Assembly (NCBI GenBank): GCA_964462155.1
Contig: CAYWWH010000003.1
Location: forward strand, 1,211 to 28,943
Direction of reading: 5' to 3'
Origin: an uncultured Candidatus Saccharibacteria bacterium
GTDB lineage: Bacteria; Patescibacteriota; Minisyncoccia; Phycocordibacterales; UBA12088
Length of the DNA: 27,733 nt
The position numbers and the translations under genes were made by a program. How positions within the stretch are numbered: position 1 is the first letter of the stretch; each line of letters starts with the position of its first letter. The notes under the pieces were generated by a model, which saw only the letters and a list, made by a program, of their open reading frames with translations, made no database searches and was not told where the DNA came from. Positions 1,613-27,721 of the stretch are shown one piece after another.

Positions 1613-2968
1613 TTAGGTAAAAAGGTCTATTGCATTTTTAAGCCGAACCACTGTTTCATCTTTTCCGAGCGCTTCAGCTAAGAGAAATGGATCAGGGGAG
1701 CGTTCCTTACCTGAGAGTGCTACACGAAGTGGCCAGAGAACACTACCCCTTCCCTCTTTTTCAGCATACTCAAAGAGAGCATCTTTAATAGCATCATACT
1801 GAAACGTAGTCTCTGGAACCTTCTCCAAGAGCGAAAGAACCTCTTGAAGTCGTCCTTGTGTACGAGACGTGTCTGTATCTTTTTTCCAAAAGAGCATTTC
1901 CTTTTCCATTTCTGGCCTCTTTTCGTAGAAATCAAACTCACCAACGTCGATAGCATCGAAAAAATCTTTCCACGTACTGAAACGTTCCAAAACATCGTCT
2001 CTCGCTCGCTTTGAACGCGAAAGGACAGTGTGGAGCTCTTTTCTCTCTACACACTTCTCTAAGAGCTCTGCTTCAAGTGCTCCTTCAGGAAGTTTCTTTC
2101 GATACTCTTTGTTAAACCACTTTAACCTATCCATGTCAAAGACAGCACCACTTTTCTGCAGGTTTGAAAGGGAGAACTCATGAACAAGCTCATCAACGGA
2201 AAATAGTTCTCTGTCGGTTCCCGGATTCCATCCAAGGAGTGCGAGATAGTTTATTATTGCCTCAGGAAGAAACCCTTGATTTCTATACTCGGTAACAGCA
2301 ACAGCTCCTTTACGCTTACTCATTTTTGACCTATCAGACGCAAGTATCATCGGAAGGTGTGTGTACACAGGTCGTTCAAATCCACACGCTTCTAGTATCA
2401 AAATCTGACGAGGTGTATTTGAGATGTGATCATCGCCACGTATGACATGAGTAATATCCATGAGAGCATCATCAACAACGACGGCGAAGTGGTAAAGCGG
2501 ATCACTCATTGAACGCGCAATAACAAAGTCGCCCAACTCAGTTGTGTCAAAGGTTATCTCTCCACGTATAGTATCTACAAATGTGAGTTTTGTATTCGGG
2601 TTATGGAGACGCACCACCTCAACCTCACGAGTCTCATCATCTTTTGCCTTCTCTTTTGAAACGTACGCTTTATCAGTATCAACGAGTTCTTGCAGTTTTG
2701 TAATGTACACATCGGTTCGCTCTGATTGCCGATAGAGCTCATCGTACTCTAGACCCAACCATTCTAAACCGTCGAGAATATCATCCTCGTACTTTTTCTC
2801 AGTACGTGACTTGTCAGTGTCTTCAATACGCACGATAAATTCACCGCCCATCTTTTTAGCAAAGAGGTAACAAAAGAGTGAAGTACGTGCAGTACCGATA
2901 TGGAGAAAACCACTTGGACTCGGAGCTATGCGTGTACGCACGTTTTTGTTACTTTTTTCCATACTCAT
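1613..2968 (-). CDS. gltX: Glutamate--tRNA ligase
   Basis: VRTRIAPSPSGFLHIGT (HIGH), RIEDTD, HVIRGDDH, KMSKR (KMSKS), LGW, PLRVALSG. Alternative start at 2962. Confidence 0.97.
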   Translation of the reverse strand: MSMEKSNKNVRTRIAPSPSGFLHIGTARTSLFCYLFAKKMGGEFIVRIEDTDKSRTEKKYEDDILDGLEWLGLEYDELYRQSERTDVYITKLQELVDTDKAYVSKEKAKDDETREVEVVRLHNPNTKLTFVDTIRGEITFDTTELGDFVIARSMSDPLYHFAVVVDDALMDITHVIRGDDHISNTPRQILILEACGFERPVYTHLPMILASDRSKMSKRKGAVAVTEYRNQGFLPEAIINYLALLGWNPGTDRELFSVDELVHEFSLSNLQKSGAVFDMDRLKWFNKEYRKKLPEGALEAELLEKCVERKELHTVLSRSKRARDDVLERFSTWKDFFDAIDVGEFDFYEKRPEMEKEMLFWKKDTDTSRTQGRLQEVLSLLEKVPETTFQYDAIKDALFEYAEKEGRGSVLWPLRVALSGKERSPDPFLLAEALGKDETVVRLKNAIDLFT

Positions 2969-4091
2969 GTTCTAACATTATTTTTACCAATTCTTCAGCT
3001 ATTGCATGTGCCGCATCTGGTTTAGCAAAAGACTTCGCTCCTTCAACCATTTTTGCAAGGAGTGCGCTATCACTCATAATCCTCCGCACCTCAGCCACAA
3101 GAACGTGCGGGGTGAAATTGTGCTGTTCTATGACCTGTGTCGCTCCTGTACGGGCGTATGCGTAGGCATTCTTCCTCTGATCACGACTCACCTCCTCTGG
3201 AATAGGTACGAGCACTGAGGGTTTGTTCCAGCACGCAATCTCAAAGATAGACCCTGAACCAGCACGCGAGATGATGAGGTCAGCACACCCAACAGCACTG
3301 CGGAGCTCTGTATCGTTAAGGTATGGAAAAACACGGTACCTGTCTCTCTGTGGATGGTTTTCAAGTTCAACATTTGCAATCTCTTTATGAGAATCAAAGT
3401 TTGCCTTCCCTGTTTGGTGGATAACCTGAAAATCCTCGAGAAGGTCACCGAGAGATTGAAGGAGTGTGTTGTTTATATGTTCAGCGCCCTGAGACCCTCC
3501 TATAACAAGAATTGTCTTAATCGACGGCGATAGTTTAAAGAACTCGTGAGCATCTTTGGTGATAGGTATTTTAACCTGCCTTCGGATTGGGTGACCCACA
3601 CAGGCAATGTTCTTCTTATTACTAAAGTACTCTGCAGCTTCCTGGTAACTTATCGCTATGCGCTTTGCAAACCTTCCCGCTAGGAGATTTGCTCTCCCCG
3701 GTTTTGCGTCTGAGTCGTGAACAAAAACAGGAATGCGTAAAAGCCATGCAGCAAGTACGACAGGTACTGAAGTATAACTCCCCTTAGTAAAAACAACATC
3801 AGGAAAAATGTTGTAAAGGAGACTGAGCGCCGTCGGAAGTCCAACCAACGTCTTTAGAGCATCCGAGCCGTTCTTAAGTGATACATACCTCCTCATCTTC
3901 CCTGCTGATACATGGCGAAACTCGATACCGTTCTGGTAGAGTAGCATTTCATCATAGGGATGATTTGATAAGTAAAACATCTCTGGCTTAACAAGACTAC
4001 GTTTGTCAACGATATCATGTATTTCCTCTGCAACAGCTATAAGAGGGTAAAAATGCCCACCTGAACCTCCGCCTGTAAAAACAATTTTCAT
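2949..4091 (-). CDS. murG: Undecaprenyl-PP-MurNAc-pentapeptide GlcNAc transferase
   Basis: TGGGSGGHFYP, GSYTS, HDSDAKPGRAN, GGSQGA, HQTG, SRAGSGS and DQRKNA motifs. Confidence 0.96.
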   Translation of the reverse strand: MKIVFTGGGSGGHFYPLIAVAEEIHDIVDKRSLVKPEMFYLSNHPYDEMLLYQNGIEFRHVSAGKMRRYVSLKNGSDALKTLVGLPTALSLLYNIFPDVVFTKGSYTSVPVVLAAWLLRIPVFVHDSDAKPGRANLLAGRFAKRIAISYQEAAEYFSNKKNIACVGHPIRRQVKIPITKDAHEFFKLSPSIKTILVIGGSQGAEHINNTLLQSLGDLLEDFQVIHQTGKANFDSHKEIANVELENHPQRDRYRVFPYLNDTELRSAVGCADLIISRAGSGSIFEIACWNKPSVLVPIPEEVSRDQRKNAYAYARTGATQVIEQHNFTPHVLVAEVRRIMSDSALLAKMVEGAKSFAKPDAAHAIAEELVKIMLEHEYGKK

Positions 4092-4099
4092 ACGTTATT

Positions 4100-5221
4100 T
4101 TATACTTTTTTAACTTCTCCTTTCTCAACCGCGTACCGCGATACATTTAAGATTATTCCCACCCCCGCAAGAGCGATAAGAAGTGACGTACCTCCGTGAC
4201 TTATAAATGGCAACGGTTCACCAGTAAGTGGAATAAGTCCAATCATTGACGCTATATTCATACACGCCTGCGTCATTACTAGTATAACAATTCCAACGAC
4301 CGTTAGTCCACCAAATCTGTCAGGAGCTCTAGAAGCAATAAAGAGCCCTCGTATGGTAAAGAGTATAAAAAAGAGAAGAATAGCAACACTCCCCGCAAAG
4401 CCAAACTCTTCAGCTGCAACACTGAATATAGAATCTCCGATTGGTTCAGGAAGGTAGGTAAATTTTTGAACGCTCTGACCATACCCCTTTCCAAACCATC
4501 CACCGGAGCCAACCGCGATGAGTGACTGCTTAAGCTGGTACCCTGCTCCACTTGGATCACTCGTAGGGTCCTTAAACGTCTCAATGCGTTCGAGAAGGTA
4601 CGGTCGTGAAAGAGCAAGGATCACCAACCCAAGAAGTCCAATCACAACAAGAAGTGCGATATGTCTCCACCTTAGACCAGCAACGAAAACTATTGAAAAA
4701 CCTGCAGTTGCCATAATAAGGAACGTTCCCGTATCTGGTTGGAGTAAAAGGACAATGGCACTAAGCAAAAGCGCCCCACTTAATCCCGTAAACGCAAAGA
4801 GTGGTTTATCTATCTTTTTATGAATCATGCTGTAGTACCATGCAAGAAAGAGAACAAAGGCAATCTTTAACACCTCACCAGGTTGCATAGAGAGACCGAA
4901 GATTGAAATCCATCTCTTCGCACCGTTTGCTTCGTACCCAAGCCCTGGGATAAAGACAAAAAGAGTGAGGAGGAGAGCACCTATAAAAATATGTGGGATA
5001 AACGGTCGATACGAACGGTACGGCACTCTTGAGAATATTGAGAGGGCTAAAAAACCTCCGCAAACACCGAAAAAGAACTGTGAGAATGCGACACTTGAAA
5101 AACGAGCCCCTTCTCGTGAGAGAAGGCCGAGTGAAGCAGAACTAAAGATAAAAAAACCTATTCCTACTAGAAGAATAGTGATAATGAGAAAAGGTCGATC
5201 TACATGTTTCAAACTTTTCAT
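4100..5221 (-). CDS. ftsW: SEDS peptidoglycan polymerase FtsW
   Basis: About 10 TM segments; GAKRWI, QPGEVLK, QPDTGT, GYQ, GSGG..GKG, LPEPIGDSIF, PLTGEPLPFISHGGTS. Lies directly upstream of murG. Start trimmed from 5296 to the ATG at 5221 (MKSLKHVD) because the extension overlaps mraY. Confidence 0.9.
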   Translation of the reverse strand: MKSLKHVDRPFLIITILLVGIGFFIFSSASLGLLSREGARFSSVAFSQFFFGVCGGFLALSIFSRVPYRSYRPFIPHIFIGALLLTLFVFIPGLGYEANGAKRWISIFGLSMQPGEVLKIAFVLFLAWYYSMIHKKIDKPLFAFTGLSGALLLSAIVLLLQPDTGTFLIMATAGFSIVFVAGLRWRHIALLVVIGLLGLVILALSRPYLLERIETFKDPTSDPSGAGYQLKQSLIAVGSGGWFGKGYGQSVQKFTYLPEPIGDSIFSVAAEEFGFAGSVAILLFFILFTIRGLFIASRAPDRFGGLTVVGIVILVMTQACMNIASMIGLIPLTGEPLPFISHGGTSLLIALAGVGIILNVSRYAVEKGEVKKV

Positions 5222-5232
5222 AGTAAGAATTT

Positions 5233-6312
5233 CTAGAGTGAACCCGCAAGTGCAACAACGACACCCGTAAATGCAAGTACTGCTGAGAGCACCCAATAAC
5301 GCATAGTAACTTTATACGATGGCCACCCCTTCGCTTCGAAATGGTGGTGAAGCGGAGCAATGAGAAATACTTTTTTATGCCTGAATTTCTTTGAGAGTAC
5401 TTGAATAACAACAGAGAAAACAGTGATGACAAGCGGAAATGCAATGAGGGGTAAGACAGCTACCCCTTTTCCACCTCCAAGTGAGTCAGTCATGAATGCG
5501 GTTATGGTGAGTGCGAGCGTAAGACCCATCGAACCTGTCTCAGTCATATAGAAACGTGCAGGTGGAATATTGAACCAAAGAAATGCAAGAAGCGCTCCCA
5601 CAACAGTTGCACAAAAAGCCGCTAAATCAACTTGGTGCTGTGCAACGGCTAGCATTCCATATGATGCAAAAATGATAGCGAACACGCCTCCAGAAAGACC
5701 GTCTATTCCGTCAATAACTCCTCCTGCGTATATAGCAAGTCCTACGAGCACAAAAAATGGAATGAACCATACTCCAAGGTCTATAACACCGTTAAACGGA
5801 ACAGATACACCAGATATTTCAAGCTTCTCATAAAACCACCACGCAGCGAAAAGATAGAATACACCTGTTATAACAAGACGACGTGCAAGTGAAAGTCCAC
5901 CTGCAAAATTCTTTCCATTTCCTGTTATTTCAAGAAAGTCATCAATAAAACCAACGAAAGCACCAACCAGGAGGGCGAAAAGAGGAAGTAAAGTTTGACT
6001 TCGTGAAAGAAAATCCATTTTTTCAAACGTTGCACCACCAAAAAAATGACCGAGAGACCACAAACCAAGAACAGTGATAAAAACACTTGCCCAAATGACA
6101 ATACCTCCCATGCGTGGAGTGTTCACCTCTTTTTCTTTGTGGAGTTCATTAAAGAGCGGAGTATCACCTCCACCATACCCTGCCTTCTTACCTGAAACCT
6201 TTTTCCAGCATTTATACTTGTACAGGTAGTGCGTCACGATTGGCGTTATTGCAATGCCTACGAAGAACGCTATTGCTGTGGGGCTGATTACTTTTATTAG
6301 GTCTACTGCCAT
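5233..6312 (-). CDS. mraY: Phospho-MurNAc-pentapeptide transferase (divergent active-site motifs)
   Basis: TPRMGG, GFIDD, DGIDGL, FLWFNIPPA, APLHHHFE and WP...V..R.W motifs. Start trimmed to the ATG at 6312, just downstream of a -10 hexamer. Confidence 0.93.
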   Translation of the reverse strand: MAVDLIKVISPTAIAFFVGIAITPIVTHYLYKYKCWKKVSGKKAGYGGGDTPLFNELHKEKEVNTPRMGGIVIWASVFITVLGLWSLGHFFGGATFEKMDFLSRSQTLLPLFALLVGAFVGFIDDFLEITGNGKNFAGGLSLARRLVITGVFYLFAAWWFYEKLEISGVSVPFNGVIDLGVWFIPFFVLVGLAIYAGGVIDGIDGLSGGVFAIIFASYGMLAVAQHQVDLAAFCATVVGALLAFLWFNIPPARFYMTETGSMGLTLALTITAFMTDSLGGGKGVAVLPLIAFPLVITVFSVVIQVLSKKFRHKKVFLIAPLHHHFEAKGWPSYKVTMRYWVLSAVLAFTGVVVALAGSL

Positions 6313-6320
6313 GAACTTAT

Positions 6321-6336
6321 AGTATATCACATTATA
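6321..6336 (-). promoter_or_regulatory. Tandem -10 hexamers (TATAAT; extended TGaTATACT) for the mraY operon
   Basis: Minus strand reads gcgaTATAATgTGaTATACTataagttcATG; the proximal hexamer lies 8 nt from the ATG. Confidence 0.55.
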
Positions 6337-6393
6337 TCGCTCAACAGAGAGACTTTTTAACACTCTCGACTGTTTTTATACTACCTAAATAGC

Positions 6394-12952: not shown

Positions 12953-13069
12953 TTATCCTTGGCGTTGCTTATTGCGTGGCTTCTTTTTATTAATAACATA
13001 CAAACGACCGCGCCTTCGCACGATCTTATCATCTGGACTTCTTTTCTTTATTGATGAACGTACTTTCAT
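12953..13069 (-). CDS. rpmJ: 50S ribosomal protein L36, zinc-free (C-) form (absent from ORF track)
   Basis: Manual translation: [38 protein letters not shown] (38 aa), in the canonical slot between infA and rpsM. Confidence 0.97.
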
Positions 13070-13081
13070 GGAAATGTTTAC

Positions 13082-13297
13082 TTAAGTTCTTCGTACTATT
13101 CTTGCTCTTCCACCATACGGATCAAGTTCGAGATGCACTGTATCTCCAACAAGAACCTTAATCCTGTGCAGTCTCATCTTCCCAGCAATATAGGCAAGCA
13201 CTACAGTACCGTCTTCTGTGACGACACGAAAAAGTGCGTTTGGAAGGGCCTCTTCGACCGTTCCTATGACAATTTGCTTATCCGATTTATCCTGCAT
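13082..13297 (-). CDS. infA: Translation initiation factor IF-1
   Basis: [39 protein letters not shown]. Alternative GTG start at 13309. Confidence 0.96.
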
Positions 13298-13329
13298 TGA
13301 GCGTGGCACAAAGAGTATCAGATACGGCT

Positions 13330-14772
13330 TTAATCGTCAAGTTTAGTGACAACTAGAATGTCACCAACTTCATCAGGAAATGTGGTTTTCCAAAATGGCA
13401 CAACATTTGCTTCTATTCTGTCAATACCTGGGTACTTACTGAGTACACCTGTCTCAACAGGTGTTTCAATGACATCTTTGTTTTTTCCTGCCAAGTCTTT
13501 CGCCAACTCATCGTCATTATATTCCCAAATAAAGCGCGCTTTTCCTTTAACTGCAACGTCATAGACCTCACTCTGCCATGGAAGATTATTTTGAGATAGC
13601 ACTTCATTTTCAGAAGGGCTTCCCCCATCTTCTCCCTTATCAACCGGTGCCACACCTTCGCCTTGTGGTTTTACAGTGACCGACAGTTCTTCCATGTTGT
13701 CAATACGAATTGGTGAGTCACTATACTCAGTCAACGTAAGTGTTGCGGTTAATTTAGCAAAAGGTTCTGTTGGAAACAGGACACCGTGAAGTTTGCCGGA
13801 AAGCATCAGACTTACTTTGCCCTCCTCCTCTAATTCATCAGGAAGAGTGTTGAACTCAAAAAATACCGCATCTTTGAAAAGGTGATACCCTTCAGGTTTT
13901 TCAGTACTTGTAAATGCTGCAGAAAGGAGCTCATCTCGGAGTTGCTGTTCAAGAGCTTTTAGCGCCTGAGAACGATCTTCTTCTTCAACAGTTCTCTTTA
14001 CACCCTTAAAGCCACCTGATAGTGGACCATTTGATTTTGCGTAAATTAACTCCTCTTGGGGTAAACCGGAGAATCCAGGAATCGTAAATGATTCAGTATT
14101 TTCAATATTATATGCCTCACCCGGCTCTTCGGCATAAACAGTAACTTCAATAGTTCCAGCACTACCATCACTCTTCTTCCCTGGAACTTCAATTGATTCT
14201 TGTATCCTATAAATACGGTTAGCAGTTGATTCAAAGCGTGTGTTTTTTATGAGACGCTGAGGAGTATCTGAGTATTCGTTGTAAATAGTAATCTTCCCTG
14301 AAGCACGCTCTTCAACCTCCTCCTCACCTTTAGCATCAACAACCCGTTTTGCCGTACGTTCAAGGACTATACGCTGAATAGCTAAACCACCTTCTCCGGG
14401 ATTTTGTGAAGATGCTTTAAACGTTGCATCTACTACAACAGTGTCTTGTTTCGGATGCACAGTGACGGTCGCGCCTGCAAACATGAGAGAGAGGCCGAGT
14501 GACGTTAGAATAACTACAGAAGCAATACCGAGAGCTGTGTACAGCCATTTTTTATTAGTACGTACACCACTCCTCCTTTCCCGTCCATATGGAGGAGGAA
14601 CCCTCCTCCGCTCTTCAGAATACTGTTCATGGTCGTTGTCATATGATATTCGTCTCTCCTGAGGTACATACTCTCTCCCAGTAGATTGCTCAAACTCCTG
14701 AACACGAGGTTGAGGACGGCGAATCCTGTCTTGATTTTTTACGATAACATCTTGAAGAGGTGGTTTTCTCAT
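13330..14772 (-). CDS. Bitopic membrane protein with baseplate-J/gp47-like extracytoplasmic domain
   Basis: Charged N-terminal tail, one TM (~aa 75-97), then ASGKITIYN..., [23 protein letters not shown] recognise this pattern from CPR proteins annotated 'baseplate J-like'; not verified by search. Confidence 0.6.
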
Positions 14773-14780
14773 ATGGTTTA

Positions 14781-15989
14781 TTATTTTTTAGTATACCACA
14801 CACCCTTTTCACTCGTACAGAACGGGAGGAGCATAGCAAAGGTGGATAGTCTCAAATCACCCTCCTCTCGATCTCTCTCCCCTTTTGAAGGTAAAATACG
14901 TAATTCTATACTATCAATATCCACCGGTGTTCGCATCCCCGGCAGTTCCCACTCGTTTTCAAATAAGGTTCTATAGAAAGGAGTCCACTCATCTTCTGTG
15001 AATAGTACAAAGTGTTTAGGAGGAACTACACCATTTGAGATTTGACCAACTCCTTTCAGACAGTGCTCTTTCCAATCCAAAAGTTCTTCTTGAAGAGTGT
15101 GGGAGAGCTTCTCAAATGTCATTTGTTTTTTCTTTTTAAAGACTTCAAACGCACTCTTTGCCTCATCAACACTTAGTGCTTTTGGATTCTCAGACTTAAG
15201 TAGGTGATTTGAACCTTTGGGTATGGTGCTGAGGTTATGTAGTACTCCCTTCTTAAATAAAAATAGTTGTGTGATTTCTCCCGTAACTTCAAGAAGAACA
15301 AAGTTCTTCTTGGACAGTACCCGTGAATACTCAGAAAGAATGTGCGCCGATGAGTGATACACAATATCATGATTTGGAACAACACGACTGACAACTTCTT
15401 CAATATTCTTTTTAATTGATTCGGCTATAAAACTTGAGTAGTATATCCCCTCGATTTCGTTTACACTACGTCGAAGTATGGATGTTGTTGTATACCCGTT
15501 AAGTAAAAAAATGAGCGGGTATGTTTCAAAAGAAAGTGGAGACCCCATGACCTCTTGCCATGAATCAAGTTCTTGTCGCTCTCGAGCATTTGCGCAAGCA
15601 CTTGCCTCAAGAGATTGGATTTCAAGGGGGGTAACAAAGAATTTTTTCTCCTTACTCTGCTTACTGCGAGAAACGGTTCCAAAGTACCATGGGGTCCCAA
15701 GTATGCAGTGCACTTGCATACTACGAACAGAAAATGATGGAGTGTCTCGAGAAACAACCTTAACTCCCTCACTTATCATCTTCATGCCCGCCTCAAGGAG
15801 CGTTGCGTACATCGTGCGAACGTACCGAGAGTACTCATCCGTTCCTGTAAAACTAAATTCGAGTCGTTTGCTCCAGAGTAGCTTAGGTACTACTCCTTTT
15901 TTGACAAGAGAAACACCAATACTTGTAGAAGCGATATCAAAAAGTGCATAAAAACCCTCTTCTTTGTTCGAAGATCCAAAACTAACCAT
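14781..15989 (-). CDS. Divergent FtsA/PilM-like actin-fold (ASKHA) protein
   Basis: Phosphate-1-like LFDIASTSIG, phosphate-2-like LLEVTGEITQL, and IPKGSNHL (cf. FtsA/PilM 'iPiGg..i'). Start trimmed from TTG 16025 to ATG 15989. Confidence 0.6.
   Translation of the reverse strand: MVSFGSSNKEEGFYALFDIASTSIGVSLVKKGVVPKLLWSKRLEFSFTGTDEYSRYVRTMYATLLEAGMKMISEGVKVVSRDTPSFSVRSMQVHCILGTPWYFGTVSRSKQSKEKKFFVTPLEIQSLEASACANARERQELDSWQEVMGSPLSFETYPLIFLLNGYTTTSILRRSVNEIEGIYYSSFIAESIKKNIEEVVSRVVPNHDIVYHSSAHILSEYSRVLSKKNFVLLEVTGEITQLFLFKKGVLHNLSTIPKGSNHLLKSENPKALSVDEAKSAFEVFKKKKQMTFEKLSHTLQEELLDWKEHCLKGVGQISNGVVPPKHFVLFTEDEWTPFYRTLFENEWELPGMRTPVDIDSIELRILPSKGERDREEGDLRLSTFAMLLPFCTSEKGVWYTKK
14790..14798 (-). 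promoter_or_regulatory. Extended -10 inside the FtsA-like gene 3' end, upstream of the baseplate-J-like gene
   Basis: Minus strand TGgTATACT, 17 nt before ATG 14772; it also encodes the W-Y-T codons of the upstream gene. Confidence 0.4.
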
Positions 15990-15995
15990 ACTGTA

Positions 15996-16025
15996 AGTAT
16001 ACGTTCCTATCGCACTCTTAAACAA
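15996..16025 (-). promoter_or_regulatory. Predicted leaderless promoter of the FtsA-like gene
   Basis: TTGTTT (16025-16020), 18 nt, TATACT (16001-15996), 6 nt, ATG. Confidence 0.5.
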
Positions 16026-16084
16026 TCATTTGTACACACGTGTAAGTCCTGAGTAGTGAGCAATGAACTTGGAACATAAAATTG

Positions 16085-16115
16085 AAAACACATTCGCTTT
16101 CGGCGAATGTGTTTT
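16085..16115 (-). terminator. Intrinsic terminator of alaS
   Basis: Perfect 13-bp stem AAAACACATTCGC/GCGAATGTGTTTT with a 5-nt loop, running into TTTTCAATTTT on the minus strand about 20 nt after the alaS stop. Confidence 0.85.
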
Positions 16116-16134: not shown

Positions 16135-18009
16135 TTACTCTAATACTGCTTTAATGCGACGCACCCCCGCACTCGACGACTCTTCTTTTACAATCGTAAA
16201 AACACCTTCAATGTCGCTCGTGTTCTTGACGTGAGGACCACCACAAAGCTCACGAGAGTATACATTCCCCTCACCATCCTTGACGGTATACACGGTAACC
16301 ATGTCTGGGTACCTATCCCAGAAACTTCCCTCAACACCATTTGTTTTCGCGTCTTCTTTACTCATAACGTCAGTCACGACGTCACATTTCTTTTCAATTG
16401 CGTCTTGAACATATTTCTCAACCTTTCGCAGCACTTCATCACTCACTTTCTCATTGGAAGTAAAATCAAAACGTAAACGCTCACTTGTAATATTTGAGCC
16501 AGCTTGGTGCACCTCAGCACCCAAGTACGTACGAAGTCCCGCAAGAAGAAGGTGGGTACACGTGTGGTACATGGTTACCTTCTCACTCGTGTCTGCAAGA
16601 CCGCTCTTAAACTTCTGTTCAGAACCAGCACGCGAGAGATCTTGATGTACTTTCATTTCCTCAAGAAACGCTTCTCTATCAACATCCATTCCTCTCTCTT
16701 TAGCAAGCTCTTCCGTCACCTCAAATGGAAACCCGTACGTTGAGAAAAGCATGAATGCGTCTCTCCCTGAAATACTCTTCCCCTCAATTTTTTCAAACTC
16801 TTTTAGGCCTCGAGAAAGAGTTGTACGGAATTTTTCCTCTTCATCTTGTATAGCTCGCTCTATCGTAGAAACGTTCTCAAGGAGTGCTGGGTAAGCATCT
16901 TTATACATTTCAACTATTGGAAGCACTACTTTTGAAAAATCTGTTCCAGTGAGCCCGAGAACATCAGCATACCTAACCGAGCGACGAATGAGACGACGCA
17001 CGAAGTATCCTTGGTCAGTGTTTGATGGAAATGCTCCTTCGCTTATAAGGAACACTGCTGCTTTCATGTGATCTGCAATAATGCGAAACGCTCGAGTATC
17101 TTTTTCATTCTCTCCGTACTTCTTCCCTGAGTACTTCTCAAGAAAATCTAGTATCGGTTTATGATTGACAAGAATAATGTCAGGAGTGTTTGTAAGTGCC
17201 ATCATGATACGCTCGAGTCCGCCACCAAAATCTACATTCAGCTTAGGGAGCTCACTGAAACTTCCATCTTCATTTTTTATGAACTGCATAAAGACACTGT
17301 TTCCTATCTCAAGAAAACGTCCGCAATCACAATTTGGGTGACAGTGCTCACCATACTTCGTATCGTGCTCTATGGTGTCAAATTCATAAAACACCTCTGA
17401 ATCAGGGCCTCCTGGCTCACCTACGGGCATGTTTTGAGGCACTCCGGCTCTACTCCACCAGTTTTTCTTTGCATTATAGTAGAAGATGCGTTCGCCCTCT
17501 TTCATACCTCGATTTGCACCCTCTTCTTCCGATCCCATGTGTGCGGTCATTGCATCCACACCTTTCGAGGCAAAGAGTTTCTTCCAGATTTCAACAGACA
17601 CATCGTCCTTACCAATACCTATACTCTCCTCTCCAGAAAAAACTGTGACGTAGAGACGTTTCGGGTCAAAGCCAAGTTCATCGACAAGAAATGAAAATAC
17701 CCACGGGAGCTGTTCCTCTTTAAAGTAGTCGCCTAAGGACCAGTTCCCAAGCATTTCAAAAAAAGTTGTGTGACGGTTATCACCAACTTCTTCGATATCG
17801 CCAGAGCGAAAACATTTTTGACTATCAACGAGTCGACTTCCTTTTGGATGACTCTCCCCGAGAAGGTACGGTACGAGGGGTTGCATACCACTCCCCGTAA
17901 AGAGAGTTGTTGGGTCATTTTCGGGTAAGAGTGATGCTGAAGGAATCACTGCGTGTCCTTGGTTTTTGAAGAATTCTAAGTATTTACTTCGAGCGGTATG
18001 TAAGTCCAT
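16135..18009 (-). CDS. alaS: Alanine--tRNA ligase, short form (no C-Ala domain)
   Basis: TLFTGSGMQP, RHTTFFEMLGNWS, VDFGGGLER, IADH, LIRR, TYGFP; editing motifs HTCTH, QAGS and ELCGGPHV; ends at GVRRIKAVLE. Confidence 0.97.
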   Translation of the reverse strand: MDLHTARSKYLEFFKNQGHAVIPSASLLPENDPTTLFTGSGMQPLVPYLLGESHPKGSRLVDSQKCFRSGDIEEVGDNRHTTFFEMLGNWSLGDYFKEEQLPWVFSFLVDELGFDPKRLYVTVFSGEESIGIGKDDVSVEIWKKLFASKGVDAMTAHMGSEEEGANRGMKEGERIFYYNAKKNWWSRAGVPQNMPVGEPGGPDSEVFYEFDTIEHDTKYGEHCHPNCDCGRFLEIGNSVFMQFIKNEDGSFSELPKLNVDFGGGLERIMMALTNTPDIILVNHKPILDFLEKYSGKKYGENEKDTRAFRIIADHMKAAVFLISEGAFPSNTDQGYFVRRLIRRSVRYADVLGLTGTDFSKVVLPIVEMYKDAYPALLENVSTIERAIQDEEEKFRTTLSRGLKEFEKIEGKSISGRDAFMLFSTYGFPFEVTEELAKERGMDVDREAFLEEMKVHQDLSRAGSEQKFKSGLADTSEKVTMYHTCTHLLLAGLRTYLGAEVHQAGSNITSERLRFDFTSNEKVSDEVLRKVEKYVQDAIEKKCDVVTDVMSKEDAKTNGVEGSFWDRYPDMVTVYTVKDGEGNVYSRELCGGPHVKNTSDIEGVFTIVKEESSSAGVRRIKAVLE

Positions 18010-21548: not shown

Positions 21549-22031
21549 CTATCCCTTAATGTATGCATCTCCTTCAAGTGTTTCGCCATCCTTAAGTGGA
21601 ATAAGGTTTAAACGTACACTTTTTCCATTCCAGAGAGCAGTAATAGTAACATTTTCTCCCGCTTCAAAGGTAACGCTAAACGGTGCATCAAAGGCCTCAC
21701 TCGGACATGTCTCACCTTCTAAAAGTGTACTAAAACGTATTTCGACTGATGAAGTACTATTTTCTCCAACAAAGAAAGGTTCTGCAATAAGGCGGTGACA
21801 TGATGTTGGAAGTGTTGCTTTTCCAGCAATAGTATGAATACCGTCTTTATACTGATGCTTTGCGGTTATAATCATATCGAGAGATTCTTGTGAAGTTGTT
21901 GCAATCACGCCAGAATCAGACTGTTCGCTCGGTGTCGGAGTTTGTATGAGTGTGTACACAAAAAATCCGAGTAAAAGAACGCACAGCGCTCCCACGGCAA
22001 TAATTGCTTTCGTGTTTAATCTATAGTTCAT
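21549..22031 (-). CDS. Hypothetical membrane-anchored/exported beta-rich protein
   Basis: N-terminal TM, Ser/Thr linker, and a beta-rich domain with two Cys (LPTSCH...TCP). Confidence 0.8.
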   Translation of the reverse strand: MNYRLNTKAIIAVGALCVLLLGFFVYTLIQTPTPSEQSDSGVIATTSQESLDMIITAKHQYKDGIHTIAGKATLPTSCHRLIAEPFFVGENSTSSVEIRFSTLLEGETCPSEAFDAPFSVTFEAGENVTITALWNGKSVRLNLIPLKDGETLEGDAYIKG

Positions 22032-22538: not shown

Positions 22539-22567
22539 ATTCTAAGGAAAAAATGGATTTAGCACAA
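22539..22567 (-). promoter_or_regulatory. Predicted promoter of the mgtC-like gene
   Basis: TTGTGC (22567-22562), 17 nt, TAGAAT (22544-22539), 12 nt, ATG. Confidence 0.5.
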
Positions 22568-23392
22568 GTCATCTATCTCCTCAAATAGTCGTTTCATCAT
22601 TCCATGTGAGAGTCCAAGAGACTCAACAGTATCAGTCTTTTCCCGTATCTGCTTACAGAGAACGATACCTTGCTCCATGAGGCGACGCTTGTTTGCTTTT
22701 GAAAGGGTTGTAAGGCAAGAGACTGGATGCACACCGGTCTCTTCAATCATCTCTCGCAAGTTCCCTTTTGCTGGATAATCCCAACTTATAATCTTGAGAC
22801 CAACACATGCAGCGTAGACCTCAACCTGTTTTGTAAACTTGGTGTTTGTAATGAGTAATCTATCGGTGTAATCAGTAGGACTTCCACTTCCACTTTGTGA
22901 TGCAATATCTTCAAATCGAGCATGCACGTAGAGAGCAACCTTAATGTCCGACTTTACTCCCGTATTGTTGTGGTACTTAACTTCTGCTCCGATGCGCTCA
23001 TCCCCTCGTGTAGCCACAACATCAAGTTCGTGCTCCACACACCTCCCTTGGACAAGTACTCTAGTTGTAGCGTCATAGCCGAGCACTTTGTACATTTCAG
23101 CAAGAAAACTTTCAAACGGATACCCGCTCGGACCAAGCTCAAGGAGTGCATGTTTAACCGAGTACCGCGCTGCTACTGGTTTCTTAACTTGTCGAAGTCT
23201 CTGGAATGCAAGTCGATAAATGTCTTGCGTTCTGTCATCTTCACGAATCGATGATGCTATATCGCTCGTAATTACATCGGCAACAACTGGTTCTGCCCCA
23301 CTCTGTACGAGCGAACGAAACAATTTCTCAGGATGAAACTGTTCCCGCTCTCCATTTGCTTTAAGTACGAATACCTCGCTCTTACTTAGCAT
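22559..23392 (-). CDS. ATP-cone + Mrr-like PD-(D/E)xK restriction-endonuclease-domain protein
   Basis: N-terminal VLKANGEREQFHPEKLFRSL (ATP cone); ELGPSGYPFE.FLAE....LGY and HELDVVA...IGAEVK (D...ExK); small helical C-terminal domain. Start trimmed to ATG 23392. Confidence 0.82.
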   Translation of the reverse strand: MLSKSEVFVLKANGEREQFHPEKLFRSLVQSGAEPVVADVITSDIASSIREDDRTQDIYRLAFQRLRQVKKPVAARYSVKHALLELGPSGYPFESFLAEMYKVLGYDATTRVLVQGRCVEHELDVVATRGDERIGAEVKYHNNTGVKSDIKVALYVHARFEDIASQSGSGSPTDYTDRLLITNTKFTKQVEVYAACVGLKIISWDYPAKGNLREMIEETGVHPVSCLTTLSKANKRRLMEQGIVLCKQIREKTDTVESLGLSHGMMKRLFEEIDDLC

Positions 23393-23528
23393 AGACACGT
23401 AGAGCTGAAGCTTCTTGATCTTGTACTCCATTCCGTGCTCTAAACTGGTCTATTGAAACGACAACGAGCATGACGACCATGAACGCAAGAACGAGTGCGA
23501 GACGAAGATTATGTTTTCCTTGTTCCAT
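23382..23528 (-). CDS. Small (48 aa) single-TM protein (absent from ORF track)
   Basis: MEQGKHNLRLALVLAFMVVMLVVVSIDQFRARNGVQDQEASALRVYAK*. It fills the mnmA-nuclease gap, overlaps the nuclease start by 11 nt and has a promoter-like sequence upstream. Confidence 0.62.
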   Translation of the reverse strand: MEQGKHNLRLALVLAFMVVMLVVVSIDQFRARNGVQDQEASALRVYAK

Positions 23529-24675: not shown

Positions 24676-25347
24676 TTATCCTTTTCTCGGTCTTCCAGGA
24701 GATCGCATTGTTGCTTCCAAATGATACTTATTAACCATCGAATCGACCCATGTCATGTTCCCATAGGGCACTCCCTTATTTACTGAACCTCGAATCAATT
24801 CTAATTCTTCTTTTTGGAGAGGGGTGTTAATAAACTTTGAATATGTGCCAGTAATTTGAAAAGGGATTGGTTCAATAATTTTTCTCTGATTTTCATCACC
24901 ATGAACCCTCCTCCATGCACTACCCCACTGCCAATCTTCACAACGGGAAGATATTTTCGCTCGAACAGGATTATACTCAATATATTTAAACACTGTCATC
25001 AAATATGAACCTGAACTTACAAGGAATGATTTATACCTTCCTTGATATAAATGTCCAGCTCCAACGGTATCGGTTATAGTATGCACCTGGCGAGTATGTG
25101 CGTTTGTAACTCTATGCATAAACAAACCCAAATCTCCGTCATTAACAGGTTGTAAAAGCAAGTGCCAATGATTAGGCATAATCACGTATGCTAGAATCCG
25201 CATGTCAGTCATCTCTTTTGCATCAACCATTAAGTTTTCGAACAAACGATACTCGGTAGGTGAATTAAAAATCTGCATTCCTCCATTTGCACGATTTATA
25301 ACATGAAAAATTTCACCACCAACATCAACACGAGCTATTCGAGGCAT
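24676..25347 (-). CDS. REP-associated tyrosine transposase (RAYT/TnpA-REP, Y1_Tnp HUH family)
   Basis: MPRIAR...G.IFHVINR, YVIMPNHWH (HUH), LYQGRYKS, YIEYNPVRA (catalytic Tyr + NP), WQWGS, and C-terminal GRPRK. Confidence 0.92.
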   Translation of the reverse strand: MPRIARVDVGGEIFHVINRANGGMQIFNSPTEYRLFENLMVDAKEMTDMRILAYVIMPNHWHLLLQPVNDGDLGLFMHRVTNAHTRQVHTITDTVGAGHLYQGRYKSFLVSSGSYLMTVFKYIEYNPVRAKISSRCEDWQWGSAWRRVHGDENQRKIIEPIPFQITGTYSKFINTPLQKEELELIRGSVNKGVPYGNMTWVDSMVNKYHLEATMRSPGRPRKG

Positions 25348-26454: not shown

Positions 26455-27714
26455 CTACCTTGGAAGATTAGAGGGGGCTTGAGCACGAGTTGACTCAATG
26501 CGTTGCATAGTAGGAGTCTTCGCAACACTTCCAGGTATATGAAAGAGTGTCGCCAACTCCTCGCTCGTCATCATGAAATTGTAAAACTCGTACGGAGGAT
26601 GGAACCAAGAACGACGTCGATACGCATCAATTATAGTCACTTTGTCAACGGCCACTTTCTTGCCATTAAAATCTTGCCATGGATAGTTAAAACGTGGCTC
26701 CCATCTGTCTCCAATGACACTTATAGAATTGTACCCGGGACTGCCAAATGGTTGCCACATGGTAAGAAGCCCAGTGATGTTTGCATCATCAAAAGATTCT
26801 TTCTCTGCGATGTAGATAGCCCGTATACCAAAATCCCAGTGTGTACTTGAAAGTCCAATACGGTTCATGAGCTGGACTCGCTTTACCTGTCTATCGCTTA
26901 AAACTTTCCCTTCTCCACCATTAGGGAAAACAATAGTCTCTTCTGGCTTTGAACGAATGTTTGCAAGCTCTTCTTTGGCATACTCATCGTATGTCTTTCT
27001 GTTTCTGTAGAAACCCCATGTCAAATCCTCTTTCTTACTCGCGCGAGCGAGTATCTGAATCCACATATACTCACCCTTCTTGAGACATCCTAAAAATTCA
27101 AAAATGTGATTAAGAGGATCAACTTTCTGCTCTTCCTTGCTCGCTGTTTGATTCAAATTGTAATCAACATACGTACGTATAGGTACTCCTATTTTATCCG
27201 CTAACCCGAAATCACATCCGAAACAGTTGTGCGTTTCAAGTGAGAATGGGAATTTCATCGCATAGTCTTCTACGGGAATTATTTCAATGTCTGGATAGTG
27301 TGCGTAGAAACTTCGTTCAACCATTCTCTGAAAAAACTTTCTCGCCCATACGTAGAGGTGTACCTCACCTTCAAAAGAGACGAGTTCAAACGAGTACCAC
27401 ATGCGCACTTTTCCCGTCCAAAGTCGATCAATAAAGTTTGCTTCACCTCCCTTTATCCATAATCCATCAAGAACAGCTTGCATGGCTACAGGAGACTTAT
27501 ACACCTCCTGAGGAAGACGGATCTCAAGGAGAACCATTTCTTGCTTCTCTATAAAACGCGAGCGAACATAATCAAGCCACCTGTACCAAAAAAACACCGC
27601 AAGAAGTGGTGGAACCCAGTATGGTGAAAAACTGAGAAAATACCCTACGTAATGAAAGGCCTCTTCAAACTGCTCCCACAGTGAGGGTAGCTGTGCAAGT
27701 AACGACTCGTACAT
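26455..27714 (-). CDS. Conserved hypothetical membrane-anchored protein (CPR-type)
   Basis: N-terminal TM, then LEIRLP...KSP.AM, YSFELVS..GEV..Y, YPDIEI..VEDY, PIRTY, DPL, WIQIL.R, ELATLFHIP. No Walker A motif. Alternative GTG start at 27717. Confidence 0.85.
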   Translation of the reverse strand: MYESLLAQLPSLWEQFEEAFHYVGYFLSFSPYWVPPLLAVFFWYRWLDYVRSRFIEKQEMVLLEIRLPQEVYKSPVAMQAVLDGLWIKGGEANFIDRLWTGKVRMWYSFELVSFEGEVHLYVWARKFFQRMVERSFYAHYPDIEIIPVEDYAMKFPFSLETHNCFGCDFGLADKIGVPIRTYVDYNLNQTASKEEQKVDPLNHIFEFLGCLKKGEYMWIQILARASKKEDLTWGFYRNRKTYDEYAKEELANIRSKPEETIVFPNGGEGKVLSDRQVKRVQLMNRIGLSSTHWDFGIRAIYIAEKESFDDANITGLLTMWQPFGSPGYNSISVIGDRWEPRFNYPWQDFNGKKVAVDKVTIIDAYRRRSWFHPPYEFYNFMMTSEELATLFHIPGSVAKTPTMQRIESTRAQAPSNLPR

Positions 27715-27721
27715 CACCTGT

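Follow-up and report, generated by a model that had tools for sequence, protein, structure and literature searches.

What task do two adjacent genes perform when they are kept side by side across the Parcubacteria, one encoding a cytoplasmic protein of the actin superfamily and the other a membrane protein whose outer part recalls a phage baseplate subunit? The question is raised by a 27,733-nucleotide (nt) stretch of contig CAYWWH010000003.1 (the whole stretch analysed, hereafter the window), the minus strand of which carries the two genes, here called g1 and g2, in the same orientation and separated by 8 nt, as an earlier note on this DNA, made from the sequence alone, had described. We give about an even chance to the answer that the two proteins make up a two-part module, specific to Parcubacteria, that works on the principle of FtsA-FtsN and PilM-PilN. 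Judging by homologues with expectation (E) values down to 1e-94 (for g1) and by the large families to which they belong, both are real genes rather than chance open reading frames (ORFs).

The AlphaFold2 model of g1, computed from an input with 16 homologues, has a predicted local distance difference test score (pLDDT) of 85.8 and a predicted template modelling score of 0.86. When this model was compared with the PDB by Foldseek, the top 19 matches were all FtsA structures, with E values down to 1.8e-18 (1e4g) and template modelling (TM) scores of 0.55-0.62, followed by PilM structures (E 3e-13 to 1e-10, TM-score 0.45-0.54), and generic ASKHA proteins (Ppx/GppA, EutJ, MreB-like) reached TM-scores of 0.3-0.4. 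The feature that sets FtsA and PilM apart from MreB and actin is subdomain 1C. After the first β-sheet and a long helix, the model has a strand, two helices and two further strands, and we read these residues (102-189), from the order of their secondary-structure elements rather than from superposition, as a putative SHS2-type 1C subdomain. P100 and W101 at the start of this segment and G165 and Y166 inside it are invariant in the family; G259, W306, P324 and D378 are the further residues conserved family-wide besides the phosphate motifs.

By sequence, g1 belongs to a sizeable family that stands apart from canonical FtsA and PilM. The g1 of the window has no Pfam match even at E<=1 and no PHROGs match at permissive thresholds, and its sole NCBIfam match, to MPN316, is at chance level (E 0.034, 13 bits against a 500-bit cut-off). 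A profile search, exhaustive over 1.84 billion representatives of 50%-identity clusters, retrieved 2066 relatives with E<=1e-3, of which 135 reach E<=1e-30; almost all have a length of about 400 amino acids (aa). Against the sequences of the PDB, a profile of 16 members reached FtsA at an E value of 0.4 only, which is not significant; one of 132 members matched Thermotoga maritima FtsA at 1e-6 over 120 aligned residues and Myxococcus xanthus PilM at 4.6e-6, which we take to show homology at the superfamily level only. Among 100 relatives of g1, 51 matched the Pfam FtsA family (PF14450) weakly (E<=0.1, best 1.5e-7), 29 weakly matched Ppx-GppA and 3 matched MreB_Mbl, and PilM_2 (PF11104) was absent from the 25 most-matched families listed. 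The FtsA/PilM-like actin fold proposed in the earlier note is thus borne out by model and profile alike, and g1 is best described as an actin-fold protein of a divergent FtsA/PilM type. It represents, beside FtsA and PilM, a third branch of their family that is specific to this lineage and has a partner of a new type.

The nucleotide motifs that had been quoted for g1 (DIAS, EVTG, no GGG) are all to be found, as FDIAST at residues 17-22, as EVTGEIT within LLEVTGEIT at 232-240, and as FVLFTEDEW at about 326-334, where the Gly-rich adenosine motif is absent. Their description as degenerate, however, suits the g1 of the window better than the family, the consensus of which reads FDIGSxSVG and DxxGExT, likewise with no Gly-rich adenosine motif; the degeneracy is therefore partly specific to the subclade of the window. 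Since ATP-bound T. maritima FtsA itself has NLGYNFT at the aligned phosphate-2 site, the motifs are not enough to infer that g1 has lost nucleotide binding. What g1 does lack is a membrane-targeting helix of its own: in 61 orthologues the chain stops 3-12 residues past the last conserved core helix (D-x-F-L..F..K), and the linker and C-terminal amphipathic membrane helix of the FtsA type are absent in these. The protein would therefore need a membrane partner, like PilM.

The candidate partner is encoded directly downstream. The g2 protein consists of a conserved segment (residues 1-12), a disordered one (13-75), a transmembrane helix (about 76-98) and a folded part (99-480), and its AlphaFold model is confident (pLDDT 86.2 for the whole protein, above 90 for most of the ectodomain). 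A bitopic protein with a short N-terminal motif, one transmembrane helix and an external domain of some 380 aa is what the first reading of the sequence had foreseen, and the external domain indeed measures 382 aa. The family motif, Mx[KR]xx[LFI][QDE]D[IV][IV]PP, often continued by RSIRNIP, opens the chain of 74 among 81 orthologues. Mean column identity in the same 81 sequences falls from 0.55 in the motif to 0.20 in the linker and reaches 0.67 in residues 147-262. The cytoplasmic tail, in which the motif gives way to 50-135 hypervariable and basic residues, varies between 46 and 135 aa and is net positive in 79 of the 81 orthologues, so that the topology is N-in, C-out. Homologues of g2 numbered 330 at E<=1e-3 among 8,000 candidates scored.

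Residues 147-262, the best-conserved block of the ectodomain, contain a β-barrel of the type seen in GlxA and in baseplate J proteins, and it is to this barrel that the label 'baseplate-J-like', attached to g2 at the outset, has to be reduced. Taken at face value, the label would make g2 a true homologue of the baseplate J/gp6 wedge and the locus a relic, since domesticated, of the baseplate of a phage or contractile-injection system. Foldseek does match the barrel to the baseplates of Mu (gp47), cyanophage A-1(L), XM1 and Pa193 (E 3e-5 to 7e-4), PHROG 6 (baseplate wedge) matches g2 at an E value of 3e-6, and a few alignments with 'Baseplate J-like' proteins of BFVD extend over 380-490 columns. 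These long alignments, however, have root-mean-square deviations of 20-29 Å, good superposition spans 110-135 residues only (the barrel accounting for about 110-170 aligned residues), and the TM-score normalised to the query is at most 0.20 for every PDB and BFVD match. The Pfam family Baseplate_J (PF04865) scores 18.3 bits, below its cut-off of 21.1, along profile positions 22-88 of 255, whereas the GlxA β-barrel (PF21110) scores 29.4 bits against a gathering score of 27 at residues 156-240; among 56 relatives of g2, the former is matched by 4 (E<=0.01) and the latter by 48. GlxA structures also head the Foldseek matches (5lxz, 4unm; E 7e-7), with about 85-200 residues aligned. As only the barrel is alike, Baseplate_J stays below threshold and the whole-protein TM-score does not exceed 0.2, g2 is not a baseplate J protein, and its barrel resembles domain 2 of GlxA better than it does baseplate J. 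Beyond the barrel, an extended but distorted resemblance to baseplate J is no more than a possibility. Furthermore, g2 is anchored in the membrane, no relatives were found in IMG/VR, and no locus contains sheath, tube, spike or other wedge genes. No phage gene was seen in the window, and the surroundings in the window and in 88 loci are of the housekeeping kind, in agreement with the earlier statement that no phage genes lie nearby. We consider descent from a baseplate very improbable and largely refuted.

The kinship with GlxA has equally narrow bounds. Against the NCBIfam GlxA model g2 scores 23.4 bits, the cut-off being 800, and the barrel alone aligns, without the seven-bladed propeller that bears the copper site. 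In databases, relatives carry the name 'GlxA-like beta barrel domain-containing protein', as in UniRef, or are labelled 'hypothetical protein'. For the remainder of the ectodomain, which has a long helix at 264-288, long hairpins and a conserved C-terminal RPFWK..FP, there was no confident fold match, the g2 profile matched none of the PDB sequences, and the other Foldseek matches in PDB and BFVD (Fabs, ectodomains of pentameric ligand-gated ion channels, FMO) have probabilities below 0.15. Foldseek comparison, which the earlier note had proposed as a check on both proteins, therefore yielded the expected actin fold for g1 and, for g2, no baseplate J beyond a single barrel.

The two genes occur together far beyond the window. 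A scan of GTDB (one genome per species) with a g2 peptide pattern returned 242 relatives, and the 80 loci that we analysed all derive from metagenome-assembled genomes of Patescibacteria/Parcubacteria, including Kaiserbacteria, Taylorbacteria and Paceibacterota. The gene order alaS-g1-g2-infA-rpmJ-rpsM is kept almost throughout, and a broad g1 profile places g1 directly upstream of g2 in 74 of the 80 species-level loci, a count that takes in two contig-edge fragments and one short g1 copy. Sampling in the opposite direction, from a 36-sequence alignment of g1, provided 8 metagenome loci, of which 7 have sequence downstream of g1; g2 adjoins g1 in all 7. The median gap between the two genes is 33 nt (60 loci). 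The recurrence of the pair in Parcubacteria, which the earlier note had put forward, is thereby confirmed. Mean corrected distances are 2.35 for g1, 1.23 for g2 and 0.70 for alanyl-tRNA synthetase (AlaRS); pairwise distances of g1 and g2 correlate with r=0.76 (partial correlation given AlaRS 0.72, permutation p=0.001), more strongly than those of either gene with rpsM or alaS. When FtsA and PilM fragments were compared with all ORFs of the loci, g1 itself was the sole match, with no canonical paralogue in the flanks. Two irregular loci were seen in this survey. In L086 (3859-5307) the g2 orthologue is split into ORFs 3859-4830 and 4834-5307, through a frameshift or stop in that metagenome contig or through a sequencing error; in L078 the ORF that directly precedes g2 (5231-5962; 244 aa) is a short, possibly decaying g1-like copy, which matches the broad profile at E 1e-11.

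How might the two proteins work together? In the module that we envisage, g1 would be a soluble, divergent FtsA-like protein devoid of a membrane-targeting helix of its own, and the conserved N-terminal peptide of g2 would hold it at the membrane, the probable binding site being the cleft that separates subdomains 1A and 1C. The flexible basic linker and the single transmembrane helix of g2 would join this cytoplasmic complex to the folded ectodomain, the conserved core of which, the GlxA/baseplate-J-type barrel, would reside in the wall zone. Precedents exist for such an arrangement: residues 1-8 of FtsN bind in the IA-IC cleft of FtsA, and the N-terminus of PilN in that of PilM (PMC7613929), and the motif of PilN that occupies a pocket in PilM is N-terminal and highly conserved (PMC5805733). 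The analogy with FtsA-FtsN and PilM-PilN drawn in the earlier note fits the anatomy of g1 and g2. It is from the FtsA/PilM fold of g1, its want of an anchor and the conserved N-terminal peptide that g2 carries on a flexible basic tether that we infer a complex of g1 with the g2 tail, and we rate direct contact between the two proteins at somewhat better than an even chance. Transcription would start at a site of their own past the alaS terminator and probably extend into infA, rpmJ and rpsM, which suggests a constitutively expressed housekeeping function. As to the process served, we prefer a role in which the pair, acting from within the cytoplasm, organises division or the growth of the envelope, because FtsA is by fold as well as by Pfam the closest relative of g1, and because the pair stands in a constitutive context with no pilus genes nearby; this preference is tentative, a guess that falls clearly short of an even chance.

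Several observations weigh against such a module. In 6 of the 80 genomes alaS abuts g2 and no g1 occurs within 6 kb. Five of these loci form one clade (L038, L055, L065, L072, L076), whose g2 proteins are 58-71% identical among themselves and at most 47% identical to others, and the sixth is a singleton (L057), so that the six reflect two independent losses or relocations of g1. The g2 proteins of these loci have the shortest tails (about 50 aa) and nevertheless retain the motif, as LQDVTPPKRSI[HQ]DIP[VI]P. Either g1 has moved elsewhere in this clade or the motif serves another partner, and we regard this as the main objection. The mirror-tree signal is also weak, given that g1 and g2 are both fast-evolving and that g2 tracks infA at 0.73. 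Fused g1-g2 proteins were not encountered among 150 relatives of g1 (up to 469 aa) and 120 relatives of g2 (up to 504 aa). Nor does anything tie the pair to division in particular: neither ftsZ, ftsQ nor a canonical ftsA lies beside it in the 88 loci.

That g2 and its motif persist in a clade lacking g1 also speaks for the view that the two genes are operon neighbours and nothing else, g1 being an independent ASKHA protein (possibly the lineage's own divergent FtsA, acting on FtsZ, or an enzyme) and the g2 motif recruiting some other cytoplasmic factor. The weak Ppx-GppA matches of g1 relatives would suit this view, and conservation of the whole alaS-g1-g2-infA order is a reminder that synteny by itself would not lead one to infer contacts among all four products. 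Yet the adjacency is nearly universal and the gaps are short, no other way for g1 to reach the membrane is evident, its fold is specifically that of FtsA/PilM with a 1C domain (Ppx/GppA proteins attain a TM-score of about 0.3), and the distances of g1 and g2 correlate with each other more closely than with those of the neighbouring genes. We therefore hold mere neighbourhood to be unlikely. Less probable again is a pilus-type alignment module, with g1 in the place of PilM and g2 replacing PilN/PilO, that would connect the cytoplasmic ATPases of pili or competence with the wall as part of a type IV filament machine of the monoderm Parcubacteria. PilM is indeed the second-best fold match of g1 and is reached by the family profile, g1 resembles PilM in having no membrane helix of its own, and the motif [QD]D[IV][IV]P with which g2 begins presumably resembles the INLLP motif of PilN. 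In addition, type IV pilus genes are common in this phylum (PMC12281837). Around the pair, in contrast, neither the window nor the 88 loci contain pilB, pilC, pilT, pilO or a pilin, the context being one of alaS, infA and ribosomal protein genes; the g2 ectodomain is not of the PilN/PilO type, a coiled coil followed by a ferredoxin-like domain; and FtsA is ahead of PilM in fold comparison as in Pfam matches. The envelope or division module remains our preference. Carried further, it could amount to an undescribed envelope-spanning apparatus of Parcubacteria in which a pseudo-FtsA, polymerised or clustered on g2 tails, arranges the ectodomains in a ring or lattice via their barrels, giving a surface structure coupled to a cytoskeleton that would serve host attachment or a division free of FtsN and FtsQ. 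This is a long shot; if true, the apparatus would be without counterpart in model bacteria.

The features on which these readings rest are collected in Table 1.

Table 1. Coordinates, in the numbering of the window, of the g1-g2 pair, its parts and its immediate neighbours
Feature	Coordinates	Strand	Remarks
alaS	16135-18009	-	upstream of g1
Intrinsic-terminator-like hairpin	16085..16115	-	13-bp stem and T run, directly 3' of alaS
g1	14781..15989	-	402 aa; cytoplasmic FtsA/PilM-type actin-fold (ASKHA) protein of a distinct family
g1 residues ~102-189	15423..15686	-	strand, two helices, two strands; putative SHS2-type 1C subdomain
g2	13330..14772	-	480 aa; bitopic membrane protein with cytoplasmic tail, one transmembrane helix and 382-aa ectodomain
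g2 N-terminal motif, residues 1-12	14737..14772	-	short linear motif conserved at the extreme N-terminus
g2 transmembrane helix, residues ~76-98	14479..14547	-	single hydrophobic segment
g2 residues 147-262	13987..14334	-	best-conserved ectodomain block; holds GlxA-type/baseplate-J-type β-barrel
infA	13082..13309	-	starts 20 nt 3' of g2; context only
rpmJ (L36)	12953-13069	-	38 aa; between infA and rpsM

The start of g1 is the ATG at 15989, in agreement with an alignment of 15 homologues; a longer ORF from a TTG at 16025 was rejected, as that alignment lends it no support. The hairpin downstream of alaS, a strong terminator, is the upstream boundary of a transcription unit that begins with g1. 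After g2, the order is infA, rpmJ, rpsM, rpsK, rpsD, rpoA, rplQ, rplM and rpsI; a terminator scan found none between g2 and infA, and the infA-rpmJ-rpsM-rpsK-rpsD-rpoA-rplQ series is likely a continuation of the g1-g2 operon. A terminator-like hairpin called at 13025-13006 sits within rpmJ and is probably no terminator. Neither g1 nor g2 is preceded by a Shine-Dalgarno-like sequence. In the region between the hairpin and g1 (15989-16084, minus strand), a TATACT hexamer ends 6 nt before the ATG of g1, with TTGTTT 18 nt upstream of it, a site that the promoter scan did not call. Because these elements stand so close to the ATG and no Shine-Dalgarno sequence is present, the g1 message may be leaderless or nearly so.

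The window has an even GC content of 40-46%, and an Rfam scan of it returned no RNA families. Its other genes include an M16 peptidase pair, a SurA-like protein, mnmA, mltG/YceG, mraY-ftsW-murG, gltX and an M23 peptidase. The mraY-ftsW-murG block, followed by gltX and a coiled-coil M23 peptidase in an EnvC-like layout (257-1609 and 2949-6363, minus strand), lies about 8 kb from g1-g2, and no ftsQ, ftsA or ftsZ follows murG in the window. The AlaRS encoded upstream of g1 (16135-18009, minus strand) has 624 aa and ends after the tRNA-synt_2c catalytic domain and the tRNA_SAD editing-domain motif; bacterial AlaRS typically has about 870 aa, of which the C-terminal part appears to be absent here. 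The only gene of the window reminiscent of a mobile element, on the minus strand at 24676-25347, is a 223-aa ORF with an IS200-like Y1 transposase domain at residues 14-125 and about 100 further C-terminal residues. Another minus-strand ORF (22559-23431, 290 aa) shows the unusual combination of a sub-threshold N-terminal ATP-cone with a faint match to Mrr_cat, a restriction-endonuclease fold, and the ORFs at 21549-22031 (160 aa) and 26455-27717 (420 aa), both on the minus strand, have no Pfam matches.

Full-text literature searches, papers on Paceibacteria included, found no description of the g1-g2 pair. The Parcubacteria (Paceibacteria) rank with the most abundant of uncultivated bacteria, yet hardly anything is known of their division and of the construction of their envelope; a pair kept beside infA and ribosomal protein genes in more than 90% of the sampled species offers a concrete handle on this question, as well as a defined peptide-protein interaction to test. 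The analysis also adds a marker for the lineage and, in g2, a new and confidently modelled ectodomain with no solved relative beyond one barrel. For annotators the locus holds a trap, as the labels 'Baseplate J-like' and 'GlxA-like' describe a single small barrel, from which neither an origin in phages nor an oxidase activity follows.

Set against known systems, g2 has one β-barrel domain in common with the baseplate proteins J, gp6 and Mu gp47 (PF04865), but it is sub-threshold for the family, shows no whole-protein similarity, is membrane-anchored, and has neither tail genes nearby nor viral relatives. Domain 2 of GlxA, the radical copper oxidase of Streptomyces lividans (PDB 4UNM, 5LXZ), is nearer, as the g2 barrel passes PF21110 and finds its top fold match there, and GlxA, like g2, is membrane-associated and extracytoplasmic (PMC11611005); g2, however, has neither the copper-oxidase propeller nor any other GlxA domain, and the TM-score is 0.2. 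Actin-fold proteins encoded beside bitopic envelope proteins with β-barrel ectodomains are also known from MreB-MreC and MreB-RodZ. With these the g1-g2 pair has in common only the general logic of an actin-fold protein and a bitopic partner, whereas g1 possesses the 1C architecture and matches MreB-type proteins far less well, and MreC is absent from the fold matches of g2. An MreB-MreC reading of the pair was rejected on the grounds of the g1 fold.

PilM-PilN (PDB 2YCH, 5EOU) shares with the pair the fold class, a soluble actin-fold protein with no anchor of its own, and a gene order in which the gene for this protein immediately precedes that of a bitopic partner whose extreme N-terminus bears a highly conserved motif (PMC5805733). 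It differs in its pil operon context and in PilM_2, which the g1 of the window does not match; the ectodomain of g2, about 380 aa with a GlxA/baseplate-J barrel, is not the ferredoxin-like domain of PilN/PilO, and its cytoplasmic tail of 46-135 aa compares with about 20-30 in PilN. In FtsA-FtsN (PDB 7Q6I, 1E4G), on the other hand, FtsA carries the C-terminal amphipathic membrane helix that g1 lacks, and the g1 of the window has no match to Pfam FtsA; nor does g1 lie beside ftsZ or in the division and cell wall (dcw) cluster, its neighbours in the 88 loci being alaS and infA. Unlike FtsN, g2 is encoded next to its presumed actin-fold partner, and its ectodomain is a large β-rich fold rather than a SPOR domain. 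What the two systems would share is nonetheless the core of the arrangement: an actin fold with subdomain 1C, for which FtsA is the best structural match of g1, and a bitopic partner whose cytoplasmic tail is basic and disordered and whose extreme N-terminus would bind the IA-IC cleft (PMC7613929).

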